A stretch of 64,000 nucleotides of DNA from a bacterium (GTDB lineage Bacteria > Patescibacteriota > Andersenbacteria > UBA10190 > CAIZMI01). The stretch is taken from positions 106,181-170,180 of the forward strand of contig JAUSJG010000007.1 in the NCBI GenBank assembly GCA_030647555.1. The letters run 5' to 3'. The notes under the pieces were generated by a model, which saw nothing but the letters and a program-made list of their open reading frames with translations, did no database searches and was not told where the DNA came from. Of the stretch, positions 7,958 to 56,317 are shown in pieces; the stretch's first letter is position 1, and each line of letters starts with the position of its first letter. Made by a program: the position numbers and the translations under genes.

Positions 7958-8107
7958 ATATTGAAAACATCCCGCCTTCAGGCGAGGCTCGCCCCGATGG
8001 GCGGCCCCCTTCGCTCCGCCAGCGGGCGGAGCTACGGGGGATTGTTTTTCTCTGATGAGAAAAACAAAAAAACCTCCGACTCCCTGGGAAGTGAAGGTTG
8101 CTACTTT

Positions 8108-12467: not shown

Positions 12468-12509
12468 CCGATCACGGAGCGGAGCAACCTTGCTCCGCTC
12501 CGTGATCGG
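12468..12509. repeat. Solo REP-like palindrome (20-bp arms) CCGATCACGGAGCGGAGCAA-CC-TTGCTCCGCTCCGTGATCGG
   Basis: Perfect inverted repeat read directly; same GGAGCAA/TTGCTCC core as palindromes flanking the RAYT gene. Confidence 0.8.
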
Positions 12510-37436: not shown

Positions 37437-37468
37437 GTGTTTGTTTGTTTTTATTCTAGCACAACCAA

Positions 37469-37500
37469 TAAAAAACAGCCCAAGCGTTGCGCTTGGGCTG
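37469..37500 (-). terminator. Rho-independent terminator of the 4-gene island operon
   Basis: On plus strand AAAAAA then CAGCCCAAGCG-TTGC-GCTTGGGCTG; on minus-strand RNA hairpin is followed by UUUUUU. Confidence 0.75.
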
Positions 37501-37619
37501 TAAGGTGCGACGATTCTTTCTTATGCGTTTGGCCCAAAATCGAGTTCGTCGCGTTCGTCCCACCATGGACCTGCTCTCAACTCGCGGTTTTTAAATAAGT
37601 GGTTTTCTCCGCTCTTTTT

Positions 37620-37955
37620 TCACTCTGGAAACTTAACACCAAAGGTCTGTTCAAGAAGTACTTTTGCTGTCTCCCTGAAAGCTGCCAAGTCGGAACCGTG
37701 AAAGTTGACCTTGTGATGACTTATTTGCGTTGGCCCTCTGGAGTGAGTTACCCAACCTTCCGAGTAGTAATCTCTTTCAGGGCCCTGAACCTCGATTCTC
37801 CACAACAATTCGTCGTGGTATTCAAGATTGCCTTGCCCATTAAGCGCTTCTTCCAGCTTCTCTGCTTCTGGAAAAATGGCTCCGATCAACGCTTGCAGAG
37901 TTTTTGCACTTACTTCATTACCAATGCTCTTAATCTGGATGATTGTGTTGTTCAT
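37620..37955 (-). CDS. Island gene D, hypothetical (111 aa)
   Basis: AAAGGAGA SD 7 nt upstream of ATG at 37955; GC-rich. Confidence 0.55.
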   Translation of the reverse strand: MNNTIIQIKSIGNEVSAKTLQALIGAIFPEAEKLEEALNGQGNLEYHDELLWRIEVQGPERDYYSEGWVTHSRGPTQISHHKVNFHGSDLAAFRETAKVLLEQTFGVKFPE

Positions 37956-38114
37956 GGTTATTCTCCTTTGTGTAGGTTTGAAAGAACACCTGTTTCGCTC
38001 TTTCGACTTGCCGGCCGTAGCCTTGGCAGAGGCTGGACTCATCAGCGAGGACACACATCCTCGAACAAGAAGGGAGTTTTTAGAGAACTCCCGAAACTCT
38101 TTCGACTTTTCGTT

Positions 38115-38606
38115 CTAGGCCTTGCGGGTCATTACGAACAACCACGTCGAGTATCTTTCGCAAAAGACCTGCCCTTCGCAACAGCACCTGTGCTCCAGTC
38201 TTCTGTAGGGTCGGTTCACGTAGAAGGTGGAGACACAGGACGTGCTTCCTCTCCTGATGAAGATTGGCCTCATTCCAACAAGGAATGTTTCCCCGTAGGC
38301 CACTTTATCTTTTATCAGGAGATACGGCGCCAATTCCCTTGGACACGATTCCAGCCCTGCCTGCACGGCTGCGGTAAGAATTTGGTCAATACTGGAATTG
38401 CTTTCAATTCCAAACTGACCAGGACGAAGCAGGAAGAGGTCTAGGGTGAGGTTTTCCGTGACGCCCCTCAACTTTGACACCATTTCATCTGCCTCTGGGG
38501 TGAGATCAACTCGATCTGAATAACTCCTCGAGTTCTCCATAAAGAAGCTGTCTCCGCACCACCCCACTCCCATGGTAATCGTTTGCCACACCTTGAACTC
38601 TGCCAT
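38115..38606 (-). CDS. Island gene C, hypothetical Cys-rich protein (163 aa)
   Basis: AAGGAGAG SD upstream of ATG at 38606; C-terminal HRCCCEGQVFCE cluster. Confidence 0.55.
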   Translation of the reverse strand: MAEFKVWQTITMGVGWCGDSFFMENSRSYSDRVDLTPEADEMVSKLRGVTENLTLDLFLLRPGQFGIESNSSIDQILTAAVQAGLESCPRELAPYLLIKDKVAYGETFLVGMRPIFIRRGSTSCVSTFYVNRPYRRLEHRCCCEGQVFCERYSTWLFVMTRKA

Positions 38607-38705
38607 CTGTACTCTCCTTTTTTCCACCATTCTTCGTTCCGGCTTACGACCTGTTCGTAAGCCGGAAGAAAAAGGGGAAGCTTTTACTTCCCCGATTGTC
38701 CGATG

Positions 38706-39179
38706 TCACACCTTGATGTTGTCGATAGTGATTTCGGCGAGGACCACTTCGCGAAGATCGTCGAGTGGTGGCCACTTGATGATTTCCACCTCCGGTTTGC
38801 CGGAGTGTTGGCGGATTGTGGCCGGCGGATTACTGCCCGTGTGGTCCATGCGCACAAAATTCACTTTGGTGCATCCTCGGGCAATCAGTTTGTAGATCAT
38901 CTCCGCCGCCTTATCTTCTGCCTGTAACTGCGCTTTTTGCGGATCGCAGTCATCTGCCCCGAAGAGGAAAAACTTTCTCACCCGCACTTTTGTGCAGCCA
39001 ACCACGGTCCGCTCCGAGTCGGAGGGATCCGGAAGTGATCCGTAACGGTGTGTTCCCGTCACCTCAAGTAACACCACCCAGAATGACCGCGATTTTAACT
39101 GAGGCGTGTTGGTTCGATCAGCGAGACTCGCGATCCGCCCTCTCGTTGCGCACTCGATCAGACTGATTTTTGCACTCAT
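38706..39179 (-). CDS. Island gene B, hypothetical (157 aa)
   Basis: AAAGGAG SD 6 nt upstream of ATG at 39179. Confidence 0.55.
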   Translation of the reverse strand: MSAKISLIECATRGRIASLADRTNTPQLKSRSFWVVLLEVTGTHRYGSLPDPSDSERTVVGCTKVRVRKFFLFGADDCDPQKAQLQAEDKAAEMIYKLIARGCTKVNFVRMDHTGSNPPATIRQHSGKPEVEIIKWPPLDDLREVVLAEITIDNIKV

Positions 39180-39796
39180 GTTCATCTCCTTTTGTTGATG
39201 TTGACCTGCTCGCGCCACAAAAAAACCTCAAATACGCTATTGAGGTTGTTTGTGTTTCTTCCACCCGCTTTTGGGCCTTCATGAGGCACAAAAGTGAGAG
39301 AAGAACGGGATCACGGGGACGTGCTCCCCTACAGCGATTATCGCCGCCAGAGTCCGAGTTTAACCCCACTTCGCTTCCGCCAGCCGGCGAAGCTACGCGG
39401 GGCAAAGAAAAACGATTGGGAGATATCTTCAGACGCTTACGGCGAGAAGAGATCTCCCAATCGTTTATAGGGTGGGATAATCAATCGGGAGGTCGAAGGA
39501 GCGATGCCTTCGTTTCCGCATAAAACCAGCCAAATCAGCCTTTGATTCGCTTACAATACAGTTGTTTCATATGCGGTCTCTACCTCGCTTGTCCCCGTGA
39601 TGTGGGGCTCGTTAGGTTTTGAAGGCACCATCCGTTTCCTTCTTAAACCGCTTCAGCCTGGATAAGTATAATGATCCTAGAAATCTTGTCAAGGGCATGT
39701 TTTTCCGCTTGCTATTATGTCTTATCGAATATTAAATTAAAAAAAGCACCAGTTTTTTAGACTGGTGCTGTTGGATATCTTCGAATATCCGTTACG

Positions 39797-41074
39797 TTAA
39801 ACGATCCACGCCCGATAGTACTTCCCTTCATCGCCGAGAAGGCAAACCAAGTACGGCCCGGAGCGACAGATATCCCGCGATGGCAAAACGATCTTACCGC
39901 GATGCTTTGCCACGAAGGATCCCGACTTGGTGCGACTCGGCTCCGTGAAATCAAGCTCAAGCAACACTTCGCTCGACTCAAGTTGCTCAACGAGCATGAC
40001 CAAACAGGAGTGCTTGCCGTGCAGAACCACGGCCTTGTAGACGCCCGTCACCGACTTAACCCATCTCTCAACATAACATTCGAGTTGAGTGATACGGTGC
40101 CATCGGCCATCCTTTTTTACGAGAATGTACCGGCCACGTTCCGACCTAACGGACAAAACCGTTTCGGGATTGACCAGGTTCCACCGATGTATGCTTTCGG
40201 TAGTGTTCGCCATTTCCTCCACGTTGCACGCCACGTCGTGAAAGGCATCGTTCGTTTTTTGCACCAAGCGACTGATTGCAACTGCCTTCTTTTCGACTGC
40301 TTCGGCCGAGGCAAGTGCCTTCTCCACCCCATTGCCGGACGCGACGCGTAGCTTGTCGGCCAAATCCTTCAGCCTCGCAAGCACATTCGTGACGCGCTCA
40401 TGAAACAGTTGCATTTCTGCCGACTTCCGTCTGATCGCTTCCAGCTTCTCGCGAATGACTTTGTCTTTCGCAAGCAACTCTCTGATCCGCTCGATTTGAT
40501 CAATCGTGATCATTTTTGGAAGCAATCGCGAATGGCGAAAGCCGAACAACTCACCACACCGGAGCAAGTTCACAAGTGGAAATCGTCGAGTGGCTTTGTA
40601 GAAAGCAATTACCATGTCGGCGTCGTCTGTCGTCGGGGCAAACCCCAATTGAGTAATCGTGTAAACGATGTCGGCAACCTCTTCTGTCAGCCGACCCGCA
40701 CACAATTCCTCTTTCAACCAACCAACGACCGTTCGATCCGCAAGTTTTCTCCAATATCGACGAAGGTTGCCCTTCATGGCGTGAATCGGGGAAACACTCT
40801 CCACTTTCCCATGGCTGACCAAATGGACAAGCTTCTCGTGGCACTCCTCGCCCACGATGAGATAACTTCCATTTTGGGAATTGGAAAGAGTAACGCAGAC
40901 CTTGATCCGCTTGTTGCAGAGATGACAGTTATGCCAGCTTTTGGAGGCGTGGATCCTTACCAGATCCCACTCCATTGCCGCACTATCGAGTTCCCTCGCG
41001 TGCGACGCGTTGACTAGGTTCCGTGCCAGCTTTTGATGGGACCAATGACGTCCCACGGTTGGGGCAGTTTTCAT
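39797..41074 (-). CDS. Island gene A, hypothetical 425-aa protein with putative N-terminal zinc-binding Cys/His cluster and central coiled coil
   Basis: AGGAAGGA SD upstream; CHLCNKRIKVC...GEECHEKL cluster; heptad-like region ~aa 190-280; TTGACA box ~50 nt upstream. Confidence 0.6.
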   Translation of the reverse strand: MKTAPTVGRHWSHQKLARNLVNASHARELDSAAMEWDLVRIHASKSWHNCHLCNKRIKVCVTLSNSQNGSYLIVGEECHEKLVHLVSHGKVESVSPIHAMKGNLRRYWRKLADRTVVGWLKEELCAGRLTEEVADIVYTITQLGFAPTTDDADMVIAFYKATRRFPLVNLLRCGELFGFRHSRLLPKMITIDQIERIRELLAKDKVIREKLEAIRRKSAEMQLFHERVTNVLARLKDLADKLRVASGNGVEKALASAEAVEKKAVAISRLVQKTNDAFHDVACNVEEMANTTESIHRWNLVNPETVLSVRSERGRYILVKKDGRWHRITQLECYVERWVKSVTGVYKAVVLHGKHSCLVMLVEQLESSEVLLELDFTEPSRTKSGSFVAKHRGKIVLPSRDICRSGPYLVCLLGDEGKYYRAWIV

Positions 41075-41244
41075 GGATCCAAATCCTTCCTATGTCCGGC
41101 ATTTCAGCCGGAGCGGTATGTAGTTGTCAATAGTACAAAACGGCTAATTGTACTACAATTTAAAACAATTGTCAAGGGAGTTGTGGGTAACCGCTCACAG
41201 GTCGAAGTAATCTGAACATTAAGGTTCGGCATTTACCAACGTAC

Positions 41245-41284
41245 CGATCACGGAACGGAGCAAGGTTGCTCCGTTCCGTGATCG
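41245..41284. repeat. Solo REP-like palindrome CGATCACGGAACGGAGCAA-GG-TTGCTCCGTTCCGTGATCG
   Basis: Near-identical to 12468-12509 copy with compensatory changes in both arms (GAGCGG to GAACGG, CCGCTC to CCGTTC). Confidence 0.8.
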
Positions 41285-52997: not shown

Positions 52998-54035
52998 CTA
53001 CGCGCTTCTCATGATCACCTCCGGTGCTTCACTTACCAGGCAACGAATTCCGGCGTTCATCCACACTGGATAGTAACGAATCGGGACGGCAGTAGTGAAG
53101 ACATTTTCGCGACCAACAATGTCCGCGACCAACGCCTCCACATCGGGATCACCGGAAGTCATGAGCACACGCCCACCATCCACCTGCAATAGATTAAGGG
53201 CGTATGGAACACATAATGTCTGGGCTGGCACATGCACTGTGATGTCGAGCGGTTTACAGACCCGCTGAAGCAACGCAACTGTTTCTCCCGGTTCACGTGC
53301 TGTCCAGTTCTGTCCCTGAAGCCACTCCGTGGAAAAGTTCAAACGATCCATTACGAAATGGAGCGACTTGTCTTGAGCCGAGAGCAGTGTGCCAATCCGA
53401 TCCAGGTGGTCGTTGTATGAAACCTTTTCCGTTACACCACCCCAGCCATAACGAAGGGCCACAAGAAAAGGTATTTCTCCAAACTGCATACCCATCTCGC
53501 GCAAAATCTGCACATCGTCTTCCCAAAGCGACCGTGACGGTCCAACATCTTCGGTTCGCAAACGATCACCGATAAGTGCTGTTCTTCCGGAGTAGAGCAT
53601 GCGTCCGCCCTCACCCCACACAGACTTCGCAATCCGCCACCCATCCTTAGATGAGACGACGCTCTCAATCCCACAAGGATTGAGGAGCAGCGTTTTCAAA
53701 TCCTGATGGACAGTACAGAAGTCTCGCGGATACAGGACGGTTGAAGGGGCGTGACCCGGAAACGCCGCCAGCCTACAACCCAACGCTTGATTGAGAGTAA
53801 ACACATAGGCTTGGTCGACCTTGGTTATGTCGCGACACACGATTCGAAAATCGACACTCATCTGTTTCAGAGCATAAGCGATCGCCGCGTGCTCCCTTCT
53901 CAGATTTTCTGCCACGATAGCCATCGTCCTGGACTCATCCAAGACATCTTGGCACAACCGCGCTTGGCCAGCGGGGGCGAAGAAATCGTTTCGACGCGCG
54001 ATATTAAACTTCGGTTCTCCCAGTAGGTACATCAT
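52998..54035 (-). CDS. Hypothetical protein, possibly pentein/amidinotransferase-like fold
   Basis: GGAGG SD, start likely at second ATG pair; C-terminal GIRCL could be a catalytic-Cys motif; assignment speculative. Confidence 0.45.
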   Translation of the reverse strand: MMYLLGEPKFNIARRNDFFAPAGQARLCQDVLDESRTMAIVAENLRREHAAIAYALKQMSVDFRIVCRDITKVDQAYVFTLNQALGCRLAAFPGHAPSTVLYPRDFCTVHQDLKTLLLNPCGIESVVSSKDGWRIAKSVWGEGGRMLYSGRTALIGDRLRTEDVGPSRSLWEDDVQILREMGMQFGEIPFLVALRYGWGGVTEKVSYNDHLDRIGTLLSAQDKSLHFVMDRLNFSTEWLQGQNWTAREPGETVALLQRVCKPLDITVHVPAQTLCVPYALNLLQVDGGRVLMTSGDPDVEALVADIVGRENVFTTAVPIRYYPVWMNAGIRCLVSEAPEVIMRSA

Positions 54036-54113
54036 TCGACCCATCCTCCAAAAAGAGATTAAATTTTCAAAAAAGGACGACCCTCTACTATACTTATATT
54101 TTCACGATTGTCA

Positions 54114-54147
54114 ACGCATCGTAATGTAACACGCATCGTAATGTAAC
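54114..54147 (+). repeat. Tandem direct repeat 2 x ACGCATCGTAATGTAAC in divergent promoter region
   Basis: Read directly; partial inverted copy GCATTACATTAG at 54306-54318. Confidence 0.7.
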
Positions 54148-54412
54148 CACTCACTGGTCGAGATTTATCTGGGACCGTCCCTGCACGCCAGGGTCGGTCA
54201 CAGATAAACAAAATTACTTACAAATCAAACTAATTACTCACACTTCCTCAACCTGTGAGCGGTTACATTCATAATGCCTCAGTGGATTGGGACACCAACT
54301 ATTGAAGCATTACATTAGTATGGACCCCCGACTTCTCGGGGGTGGTGGATTTTTCTGATACTTACTGTAATATCGACTTTCAGGCGGGTGAGGAGCTACT
54401 TACGCGTTATAT

Positions 54413-54441
54413 TTGACAAATTCAAATAAATCTTATAATAT
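54413..54441 (+). promoter_or_regulatory. Consensus sigma70-type promoter TTGACA-17nt-TAATAT
   Basis: Read directly; lies upstream of ATG 54503, so the upstream TTG of the longest ORF is the -35 box. Confidence 0.6.
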
Positions 54442-54502
54442 ACTACGTTCAGTTACGGAACGATTTTTTGACAATTTTCCTCCTTCTTCAGGGAACCCTG
54501 CC

Positions 54503-56317
54503 ATGTCCATGTCAATGGGATGTTACGTCGGTGCGTATCTCACTCAAGCGGTCGTTCAGGTTGCATCACTATCCCCAATCCAATGGAGCCTGCTCAGTGC
54601 GTACGCCAAATACGGCTACGGCCCACCTCCTTACGTCGAGCCGACGTATGAGGATGAAACTTTCCACCCCCGGCTCAAGCTCAAACTCCAACAGATCGTC
54701 GGCTTTGAGGAGATGGAACACTCCCTCCGCATGCAGTATGTCGACGCGGCCAACGAAGTATTTCGTTTCGCCTACACACGCGGACGAGATGAGGACGATG
54801 AACAGAAAGGATTCTACAAAATCCCCCTCCTGCGCAATCGCCGGATCATGGATGATCCAGAAGGCATCGACCGCATCAAGATTCGCATTAGTCGCGCGGA
54901 ATACGAACGTGCCAACGCGATCCTGGAAGCCGTCGGCGAACTGGAAAGGATCGCACGCGCCATTCCATACTACGAGCTGTACTGCACGGTCAAGAAAAAC
55001 CTGCGGCGTCAGTTCAAAGTTGGGCTCGATGATGTGGTCTTAGTATCGATTGACCGCGGTGGTCGACTCCCCTGCATCATCCTTCAACGAGCATTGAACA
55101 TGCCCTGCATGTTCTCGCTCAAAGTAGACCAGGGCGGACGAGGCCTGGACGAAGACCGTCTCCTCGAATTCGTTTCGGACGGCACTCTGCGAGACAAGCA
55201 TGTCCTCTTTGTGGACTCGACCGTGGATTCGGGACGTCAGATCCGAGTGTTAGAGCGTTACTTCGATGATTCCAACTGGCGAGCCAGACTGGGACACCGA
55301 AGTTGGTCCATCGTCGGATCAAACGACTACGCCGAAAATCTCGGTCACCACTTGAACGTCAATTGGGGTGTCGATCCCGACCGAACGTTTGAGGACAACC
55401 CCCAACTAATGGGGATCGACTACGCTCCGGGAAGTCACACGAAGGTCGTTGATTTTCCGTCGCAAGCCGCGACCGACATTCGCAGATGTTTGTTGGCAGT
55501 GCCGGATGGCTACATCTACACTACCTCAGACATCGACGAACAACTCGCCACCCAACGCGAAAAATGGCAGCAACGCCAAAAGGAGCGTCGGGCGGAACAC
55601 AGACGGCAAGTGGCGACAGAAAAAGCGACTCATCGAAGCGAAACAGCGCAACATCGACAGCGAGTGAAGGCTGCCGACAAGGCCGATCGTCTCGATCGTG
55701 AATTGCGACGAATCACCTCTTCCAAGCGTTGGCAAGCACTCAAGCGTGCAAGCCAAAGTCTGCCGGAAGAGACATTGCCTCAAGCGGTTCAAAACGGGCA
55801 AGCCCACGAAATGCACAACGTGCTAATCGTGGGCGCGCGCCAGCAGAACCTGCCACAGGCAACGGTAGATTTCGTCGCCGACAACCTTGGCCCTCACTGC
55901 TCACTGTTTGCCGGAACGCCCAAAGGCAACCCCGGCGCCGTCCTCAAGGCGGTGCTGGCAAGCCAGAAGGTTCCGCAACCGGAGGTGCGTCTGTATCAAA
56001 CAGAGCACATGCGGGGACAAGTCGATCCAGCATTCGGCAACTCGCCGGTCGTGTTCGTCGGTCCAGACAAGCACGACGTGCGCTACAGGATGATCGATGA
56101 CTCGCACGCAGTCCTCGCTCTGGGTGGAGAAGATGGGACGCTGGAAGAAGTGCTCCAAGCACTTCTCTCGGATAAGCCCACCTTCATTATCTCGGGTTAC
56201 GGACCAGTCGCCGCCTACGTCGCCGGTAGCAAGCAGCTTCGAAAGAAGAAGAGCTTGCACATCTGTTCCAGTGTGGCCGAGGCGGTACAGCTGATCCTAG
56301 ACGCGTCCAAAGCCTAG
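54503..56317 (+). CDS. Multidomain protein: unknown N-domain + type-I phosphoribosyltransferase (PRTase) domain + highly charged helical linker + LOG/SLOG (Lonely-Guy-like) domain
   Basis: PRPP motif HVLFVDSTVDSGRQI and upstream VVLVSIDRGGRLPCIIL; linker QREKWQQRQKERRAEHRRQ...; LOG motif AVLALGGEDGTLEEVLQAL...KPTFIISGYGP. Confidence 0.6.
   Translation: MSMSMGCYVGAYLTQAVVQVASLSPIQWSLLSAYAKYGYGPPPYVEPTYEDETFHPRLKLKLQQIVGFEEMEHSLRMQYVDAANEVFRFAYTRGRDEDDEQKGFYKIPLLRNRRIMDDPEGIDRIKIRISRAEYERANAILEAVGELERIARAIPYYELYCTVKKNLRRQFKVGLDDVVLVSIDRGGRLPCIILQRALNMPCMFSLKVDQGGRGLDEDRLLEFVSDGTLRDKHVLFVDSTVDSGRQIRVLERYFDDSNWRARLGHRSWSIVGSNDYAENLGHHLNVNWGVDPDRTFEDNPQLMGIDYAPGSHTKVVDFPSQAATDIRRCLLAVPDGYIYTTSDIDEQLATQREKWQQRQKERRAEHRRQVATEKATHRSETAQHRQRVKAADKADRLDRELRRITSSKRWQALKRASQSLPEETLPQAVQNGQAHEMHNVLIVGARQQNLPQATVDFVADNLGPHCSLFAGTPKGNPGAVLKAVLASQKVPQPEVRLYQTEHMRGQVDPAFGNSPVVFVGPDKHDVRYRMIDDSHAVLALGGEDGTLEEVLQALLSDKPTFIISGYGPVAAYVAGSKQLRKKKSLHICSSVAEAVQLILDASKA

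Follow-up and report, generated by a model that had tools for sequence, protein, structure and literature searches.

Clusters of hammerhead ribozymes are known from prophages, where they flank individual genes or small groups of them; the gene content of these arrays is varied, processing of a long transcript has been proposed as their role, and cleavage has been shown in vitro and in E. coli (Perreault et al. 2011, PLoS Comput Biol, PMC3088659). Here we describe a region of four small genes, A to D, and the RNA elements between them, located on a stretch of 64,000 nucleotides (nt) of contig JAUSJG010000007.1 (hereafter the window) from a bacterium of the Patescibacteriota. Structured elements between cistrons, with a stabilising 3' hairpin, also occur as the RNase III sites of the phage T7 early region and as RiboJ insulators, and ToxIN-type loci are ordered as promoter, RNA, terminator and protein gene. 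The best-supported description of the window array is a variant of the clustered-hammerhead arrangement with new features, namely the pairing with hairpins, a C4 core in the first ribozyme of the relatives' arrays, replacement or rearrangement of the ribozyme in the window and a long leader. We favour, with moderate confidence, the reading that the genes are mobile cassettes of accessory genes and that their expression is controlled mostly through RNA, by way of attenuation and of processing of the transcript.

The likeness to the prophage arrays involves two related loci, L002 and L008. In L002, the A homologue (47% identical) is followed by a promoter, then by a leader of ~140 nt that contains a terminator, and then by three small genes, each directly behind a type III hammerhead motif. 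The three hammerheads of L008 are arranged in the same way; no A homologue was called there within 10 kb, and its third gene is 59% identical to C. Like the prophage arrays, both loci carry several type III hammerheads in the same direction, each just 5' of a small gene, with variable gene content, and their context has the look of a mobile element. Unlike the prophage arrays, they and the window have apparently Patescibacteria-type hosts, orphan genes, a hairpin 5' of each ribozyme and C4 in the first hammerhead of each relative's array, and the window adds a long structured leader. Several hammerheads per transcript, as in the described clusters, are found in L002 and L008 (three each), whereas the window has one motif, and two of its three positions lack a canonical ribozyme (a core-less hairpin and a hammerhead with rearranged stem II). 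The features of the region are listed in Table 1.

Table 1. Genes and sequence elements of the A–D region (window coordinates; - denotes the minus strand)
Feature	Position	Strand	Remarks
Gene A	41074..39797	-	425 aa
Gene B	39179..38706	-	157 aa
Gene C	38606..38115	-	163 aa
Gene D	37955..37620	-	111 aa
Sigma-70-type promoter of A	41147..41175	-	TTGACA-17-TACAAT, 11/12 matches; conserved in L005, L006
5' untranslated region (5'UTR) hairpin of A	41093..41117	-	ACCGCUCCGGCUGAAAUGCCGGACA; near-invariant in six A loci
Intrinsic terminator 3' of A	39738..39769	-	9-bp stem and T7 run; identical in L005
Second sigma-70-type promoter	39665..39692	-	TTGACA-16-TATACT; hexamers kept in L005, spacer diverged
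Structured non-coding leader RNA, candidate attenuator	39215..39660	-	~445 nt; fold z-score, conservation
Attenuator core of leader (predicted)	39408..39495	-	ViennaRNA on sub-sequences, consensus fold
Variable hairpin of leader	39360..39402	-	different hairpin at the same place in L005/L013
T2, second intrinsic terminator, leader end	39217..39247	-	8-bp stem and U7; stem kept, loop differs in L005
B/C module	38620..38693	-	terminator-like hairpin 38693..38674, UUUUUCUU, 18-bp bulged hairpin, GAAGAAUGGUGGAAAA, Shine-Dalgarno (SD) site
GGGAGUU...AACUCCC hairpin 3' of C	38072..38092	-	adjoins the hammerhead on its 5' side
Type III hammerhead ribozyme motif 5' of D	37989..38069	-	rearranged stem II; own scan, RF00008, model R2
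Strong intrinsic terminator closing the array	37465..37501	-	12-bp stem, 8 GC pairs, T-run; terminator scan
REP-like (repetitive extragenic palindromic) perfect palindrome	41245-41284	.	19-nt arms; near-identical copy 12469-12508

A preliminary description of the stretch had taken A to D for a compact operon. This was abandoned, because a separate promoter, a conserved structured RNA and two terminators lie in the 617 nt that part A from B, because A, B and C each have a terminator-like hairpin behind them, and because a hammerhead motif precedes D: A has its own promoter and terminator, and the second promoter, the leader and the hairpin or ribozyme modules lie between the genes. The region contains 13 terminator-like sites, compared with 5.9 ± 2.4 in shuffled sequences, and hairpins follow each of the four genes. 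Gene A forms a self-contained cassette of promoter, 5'UTR hairpin, gene and terminator, which is found alone in other genomes. The hairpin (ACCGCUYCGGCUGAAAUGCCGGACA) was near-invariant in 6 of 6 A loci, whose proteins were 39-84% identical (tblastn). Changes in its stem were compatible with G-U pairing; it is present in a single copy in the window, and the motif was absent from IMG/VR. Conservation of the hairpin would suit an operator of an RNA-binding protein, and the hairpin is proposed as a candidate operator for autoregulation.

The second promoter is followed by the leader RNA. Its minimum free energy (MFE) was -180 kcal/mol, compared with -138 ± 6 kcal/mol in shuffled sequences (z = -6.9). 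We compared it with the closest relative, L005 (A 84% identical, tblastn), and with L013, which overlaps L005. The leader was 92-98% identical in most 50-nt bins, against ~84% for A, ~76% for B and ~73% for the adjacent host gene. The conserved part extends from the presumed transcription start, just past the -10 box, to T2, and its conservation exceeds that of the flanking genes. No conserved open reading frame (ORF) was found in the leader, and neither the leader nor the intergenic modules matched any Rfam family at E ≤ 10. Only two lineages are known to carry the leader: an nhmmer search over 199 loci returned only the window, L005 and L013, a metagenome scan with a leader 25-mer returned only the known L005 contig, and the leader was absent from IMG/VR.

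Two intrinsic terminators are located in the leader. The internal one, T1, has a 15-bp stem at 39466..39408 and a U5CUUU tract (-31.8 kcal/mol), and T2 lies 38 nt 5' of the start codon of B. ViennaRNA calculations indicated that CUCCCGAUUG (39491..39482) can pair with CGAUUGGGAG, forming a predicted antiterminator of -15.7 kcal/mol. This helix uses the 5' strand of T1, and the two helices are predicted to be mutually exclusive. The attenuator core was identical in both lineages. A promoter-proximal terminator and a mutually exclusive antiterminator are thus both predicted, which suggests that the leader has the layout of an attenuator. A promoter scan detected no promoter-like site 5' of B, C or D, and these genes would therefore be reached by read-through of T1 and T2.

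Like known terminator/antiterminator leaders (riboswitches and those of BglG/LicT, PyrR and TRAP), the window leader is a promoter-proximal, conserved and structured RNA in which the 5' strand of T1 can pair upstream, and a gene for a putative RNA-binding protein (A) adjoins it. Unlike them, it has no riboswitch or leader match in Rfam, carries two tandem terminators and a ~250-nt upstream domain, and precedes orphan cassette genes instead of a metabolic operon. Comparison of the leader structure between the two distinct sequences revealed three compensatory pairs, all in the swapped hairpin, and a few G-U transitions; several hairpin tips differ from L005 with the stems kept. The swapped hairpin at 39360-39402 is related to a hairpin at 8009-8043, both having the GC-rich form CCCC(G)CGUAGCU(U/C)CGCC...GGCGGA(A)GCGAAG(U/G)GGGG. 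The copy at 8009-8043 sits behind a terminator near 8.07 kb, and the two hairpins make up another small family of palindromic repeats in the host. We also considered GGCUGAUUUGGCUGG in the leader as an A-binding motif shared with the 5'UTR hairpin of A; this was rejected, as the likeness is superficial and the two fold differently.

At the B/C junction, the position taken by a hammerhead in the relatives is occupied by the B/C module, which is without the catalytic core. Its 18-bp hairpin has one bulged pyrimidine, and the 5' strand of this hairpin is the U-tract UUUUUCUU. Model R1, representing the module, gave one match in the window and two in L013, with 79-85 bits, and none elsewhere in 82 sources (~0.64 Mb). 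One of the L013 copies keeps the stem through compensatory changes. Judged from sequence and predicted folding, the module is a candidate attenuator and nuclease processing site. GGGUGG or UGGUGG is located 5' of the SD site in all three modules. The GGGUGG is shared with T-boxes, but this assignment was rejected, since there was no Rfam T-box match and no aminoacyl-tRNA synthetase context.

The C/D junction carries the window hammerhead. Its core (CUGAUGA and GAAA) is present and aligns to RF00008 (Hammerhead_3) and to model R2, which represents 73 hammerheads. A GUU cleavage site is followed by stem I (CGAGGA-UGUGUG-UCCUCG, 6 bp), with the loop as in 73 other sequences of this subtype, and stem III (CUUGU/ACAGG) has 5 bp. 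The core, the GUU triplet and stems I and III thus align as in RF00008, whereas stem II is broken by an insert of 31-38 nt. Stem II has G-C and U-G closing pairs, a 31-nt insert and a residual UC-GAAA-GA, and no clean helix was obtained in MFE or suboptimal folds. Model R2 matched 38069..38006 with 33.7 bits (E 2e-8, filters off), and this was the sole significant match in the 64 kb; the whole-window Rfam scan did not report the motif. Apart from the insert, the window hammerhead is near-identical to hammerhead 3 of L002. The insert partly duplicates the 3' end of C and looks like a recombination scar. The GGGAGUU...AACUCCC hairpin that lies 3' of C also precedes hammerheads 2 and 3 of L002 and hammerhead 3 of L008, and it may act as a stabiliser of the 3' end after cleavage. 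GUUCUUU(CA) is often found 3' of compact hammerheads (window 37975-37988, L008, L016, L049, L051 and L079), and may be a conserved 5' end of the mRNA that cleavage sets free.

We searched for this hammerhead subtype with the pattern TGTGTG-N6-CTGATGAG-N6-30-CGAAAC, which was derived from the hammerheads of L002 and L008 and in which no stem pairing is required. The pattern was found at 73 loci in one-genome-per-species GTDB contigs, 48 of them Patescibacteria by record titles, and in 111 viral contigs. Of the 73 genome loci, 57 had the full three-stem fold. When 73 hammerheads were aligned, in a set filtered for stems and for which the unfiltered 57/73 is the fairer figure, 96.8% of the cells were paired and 355 had changed on both sides; none of 500 shuffles reached this, and slid registers of the alignment collapsed. 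In other genomes, the products of genes behind hammerheads of this kind are, among others, ArdC, a helicase resembling DinG and a NUDIX protein, which fits accessory roles in mobile elements.

The first hammerheads of L002 (11512-11564) and L008 (8992-9042) have CCGAUGA or CCGACGA in place of CUGANGA, with C at core position 4. They directly follow the leader terminator and show two compensatory changes in stem I. To judge from their sequences, these C4 hammerheads may be slow or regulated variants. The leaders of the two loci (L002 11353-11484 and L008 8834-8986, ~130-150 nt) are only partly alike, with invariant columns making up ~60% of the alignment. In both, an ATG is located 7 nt past the -10 box and opens a reading frame (43 and 50 codons) that ends in or just past the terminator; the encoded basic peptides are similar (...F[PL]LEK[FL]K.KR...). 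These two leaders may be leaderless small ORFs instead of non-coding RNAs.

Comparison with other genomes revealed the boundaries of the cassettes. Homology to L006 covered exactly 41178..39740, from the A promoter to the A terminator, in an unrelated context. Homology to L013 reached as far as the C start codon, and the gene that comes next in L013 is a different one. At L013 1075-1662, B is followed by a ~100-amino-acid (aa) Cys-rich ORF and then a small ORF, which replace C and D. Both of these ORFs are preceded by the same hairpin module as at the window B/C junction, and the presence of the same module before differing genes suggests that cassettes are exchanged at conserved intergenic modules. 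The A cassette was found in four other genomic contexts and was solitary in L004, L006 and L007. At L004 3200-9722, the A homologue (40%) stands beside Fic, MazG-like and two Schlafen-group-3-like helicase genes, giving the locus the look of a defence island. C-like genes (~60% identical) were found in two other contexts, behind a hammerhead in L008 and, in L012, solo on a short contig behind their own promoter. Horizontal spread of individual cassettes is supported by these breakpoints, the solitary A and C genes, the 5'UTR hairpin in all A loci and the contrast in SD sites and in G+C content at third codon positions (GC3). No integrase or phage genes adjoin the island; L002 adjoins a gene for an ATPase like the coupling protein of type IV secretion systems. 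An integron array was rejected, as no R boxes (RYYYAAC...GTTRRRY) were seen by inspection of the modules, made with no dedicated attC model, and no integrase-sized ORF adjoins. A TnpB/omega-RNA-like or bridge-RNA system was also rejected, since A has no nuclease or transposase domain.

The composition of the genes was compared with that of the 40 other long ORFs of the window. The preliminary description had read the region as four co-oriented genes with foreign translation and GC signatures, and most of this held. All four ORFs lie on the minus strand, and the same four products had been predicted independently on a publicly available contig from this organism. AAGGA(G) was located 7-12 nt 5' of the ATG in 4 of 4 genes, and the proposed scarcity of SD sites in native genes was likewise confirmed, with a match of at least 5 nt in 3 of the 40 other ORFs. 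The foreign GC signature applied to A, B and C, with GC of 0.53, 0.54 and 0.51, respectively (background 0.449 ± 0.041), and GC3 of 0.62-0.63 (background 0.444 ± 0.076), an excess of ~1.5-2.5 standard deviations. It did not extend to D, whose GC (0.452) and GC3 (0.46) equal the background. GC as high as that of A to C is reached elsewhere in the window, for example at 53-56 kb. The stretch 52998-56317 has raised GC, with two ORFs of GC 0.53-0.55 and GC3 0.56-0.61, and may be acquired.

The flanking elements that the same description had named were also recovered. The rho-independent terminator was found as a 12-bp stem with a T-run at 37501..37475, and the TTGACA promoter region as the promoter of A. 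The REP-like palindrome is present, with perfect arms (CGATCACGGA(A/G)CGGAGCAA), and did not hold as a boundary of the island: a second copy, for which 0.04 was expected by chance, lies at 12469-12508, and the palindrome is therefore a repeat of the host genome outside the cassettes. The stretch 41245-41284 is not conserved in L005. In a public short-read assembly of the same sample, one contig ends after a 198-aa gene and the next starts ~200 nt 5' of A, which places a break in or near the 41.2-41.4 kb intergenic region with the palindrome copy. The proposed horizontal acquisition gained support from the SD and GC3 contrast, the varied contexts, the breakpoints at cassette edges and the difference in identity between island and flank. 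The A–D island is real, and it was probably acquired.

We examined the four proteins through sequence and structure searches. As the earlier reading of the letters had it, none belongs to a recognisable family: A to D had no significant match in Pfam, NCBIfam, PADLOC or PHROGs. Nor was a match to any of the four obtained when PDB was searched by sequence. No component of a defence model in PADLOC-DB 2.0 was matched significantly; the sole match, A to PbeC, had an E value of 0.028 and lay over the coiled coil. The only match of B, C and D in Pfam, PADLOC or NCBIfam was C to TIGR03381 (E 0.19), which is not significant. In an index of 5.8 billion proteins, nine homologues were found for A, three for C besides itself and one for B besides itself; the sole homologue of B (71% identity) belongs to the L005/L013 lineage. 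D was left out of this search; in a cluster lookup, its 90% cluster had no other member. Among 50,697 phage records, tblastn detected no match to A, and the A profile found nothing in IMG/VR.

A HMMER profile search yielded 186 representative clusters for A, all without annotation. They share mainly the N-terminal ~220 aa, and their C-termini are varied; two distant relatives end in KH domains, and two others have an FGE-sulfatase domain. The AlphaFold2 model of A (predicted local distance difference test score, pLDDT, 70.6) consists of an N-terminal beta/alpha domain, three long helices and a C-terminal beta domain. The Cys cluster and long helices expected for A were thus seen, with a conserved cluster (CxxC plus a third Cys) within the modelled N-terminal domain. 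In a Foldseek search of A against PDB, the best match was the TRAM/OB RNA-binding domain of RumA/RlmCD, a weak one (E ~0.08, 55 columns, 2.1 Å root-mean-square deviation), which appears to fall in the C-terminal domain of the model. Foldseek against BFVD returned only weak-scoring uncharacterised phage proteins. Because of the weak TRAM/OB-like match and the KH domains of distant relatives, protein A is tentatively regarded as an RNA-binding protein. The model of C (pLDDT 37) was unusable. The CCC motif noted earlier in C is invariant and forms part of HxCCCEGQxF near the C terminus, and the C family keeps many invariant residues.

Under the reading of mobile cassettes expressed through RNA-level control, the region would work as two units. 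In one, gene A would be expressed from its own promoter with its 5'UTR hairpin and terminator, and A may bind its own leader. In the other, the promoter at 39692..39665 would first yield the ~445-nt leader with T1, T2 and the competing antiterminator helix, and only read-through transcripts would get to B, C and D. At the B/C and C/D junctions, a hairpin would be followed by a processing element, which in the relatives is an intact type III hammerhead. Intact hammerheads would cut the polycistronic RNA into single-gene mRNAs, each with a protective 3' hairpin and a 5'-OH start. In the window, the C/D junction has the hammerhead with rearranged stem II, and the core-less 18-bp hairpin at the B/C junction would be a possible RNase III-type site as well as an attenuator. 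The predicted cutting of polycistronic RNA by elements between cistrons would make the window comparable to the T7 RNase III sites and RiboJ. By analogy with genes flanked by hammerheads in other genomes, B, C and D most plausibly serve a phage or mobile element in accessory roles, for example in anti-defence or in taking over the host. A more far-reaching version, which we consider doubtful, is that the leader belongs to a class of large structured regulatory RNAs that has not been described before. As an attenuator or antitermination element, which A might read, it would gate a mobile array of orphan genes in CPR-type bacteria, and the core-less hairpin would functionally replace the hammerheads at the boundaries of cistrons.

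Other explanations were weighed against this one. The ~445-nt RNA could be a stand-alone trans-acting RNA, acting either as the partner of A in a ribonucleoprotein or as a regulator that pairs CCCACCC with the GGGUGG 5' of the cassette SD sites. In line with such a role are the promoter of its own and the two terminators, its extreme conservation, its position directly after A in the window and L005, the RNA-binding look of A, and the location of CCCACCC in a predicted unpaired region, with GGGUGG or UGGUGG 5' of the SD in all three modules. We consider it unlikely, however, given that B has no promoter-like site and needs read-through from the promoter at 39692..39665, that most A loci are without the RNA, and that the complementarity is only 5-6 nt. 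The order of promoter, non-coding RNA, intrinsic terminator and small protein gene is also that of ToxIN loci, which would make the region a type III toxin-antitoxin-like unit with an antitoxin RNA, a leaky terminator and B as the toxin gene. Unlike ToxIN, the RNA at 39215-39660 has no repeat array, tandem or direct; no ToxN-like protein is encoded, as B, C and D matched no ToxN, AbiQ, CptN or TenpN-type model in Pfam, PADLOC or NCBIfam; and more genes follow B. This explanation is very improbable.

A to D might instead function together as a single system, a novel module of the anti-phage defence or toxin type, with the RNA elements as ordinary operon punctuation. They are co-oriented orphans with a common SD and composition signature, A stands beside small-gene arrays in three lineages (window, L005 and L002), and in L004 it adjoins the defence-island-like group of Fic, MazG-like and Schlafen-like helicase genes. 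However, none of B, C and D accompanies A in L004, L006 and L007, C-like genes occur with no A homologue within 10 kb (L008) or solo on a short contig (L012), the genes after B differ in L013, no PADLOC match was obtained, and A has its own promoter and terminator; we regard a single system as rather unlikely. A decaying remnant of a hammerhead-punctuated array, with ribozymes lost or broken, genes drifting and no current function, would account for the 31-nt insertion that duplicates nearby sequence in the C/D hammerhead, for the core-less B/C hairpin, and for D being a singleton with host-like GC. In contrast to what decay would leave, all ORFs are intact with strong SD sites, the coding sequence differs more between lineages than do the leader and the B/C module, and the C family keeps many invariant residues, which makes this quite improbable.

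Several points weigh against the cassette reading that we prefer. It rests on sequence and predicted RNA structure, from which we infer expression and cleavage. The window hammerhead scored 14.7 bits against RF00008, with a 38-nt insert aligned, where the gathering score is 48.5, and it may be dead; the intact hammerheads of the relatives scored 18-29 bits, likewise below gathering. No hammerhead precedes B or C in the window. The leader is known only from two lineages, with almost no differences between them in the critical segments, and its structure and the antiterminator are based on thermodynamic prediction, one swapped hairpin and a few G-U-compatible changes. The viral collections searched contained no relatives of A, B, C or D. 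Neither an integrase nor an att site nor a relative with an empty site was found, and the only close relative contig, L199, is a neighbouring contig from the same sample.

If the reading of mobile, RNA-punctuated cassettes is true, accessory genes travel between ultra-small uncultured bacteria as cassettes that carry their own expression signals: strong promoters, SD sites in an SD-poor genome, and punctuation at the RNA level. The leader RNA is a candidate new RNA element, and the A family, with its 186 clusters, a candidate RNA-binding regulator of a new kind. The practical value lies in this list of targets, and no protein function was discovered. An intact hammerhead, a rearranged hammerhead and a ribozyme-free hairpin at the same cistron position provide a natural comparison, which could make the long-open purpose of bacterial hammerheads testable.

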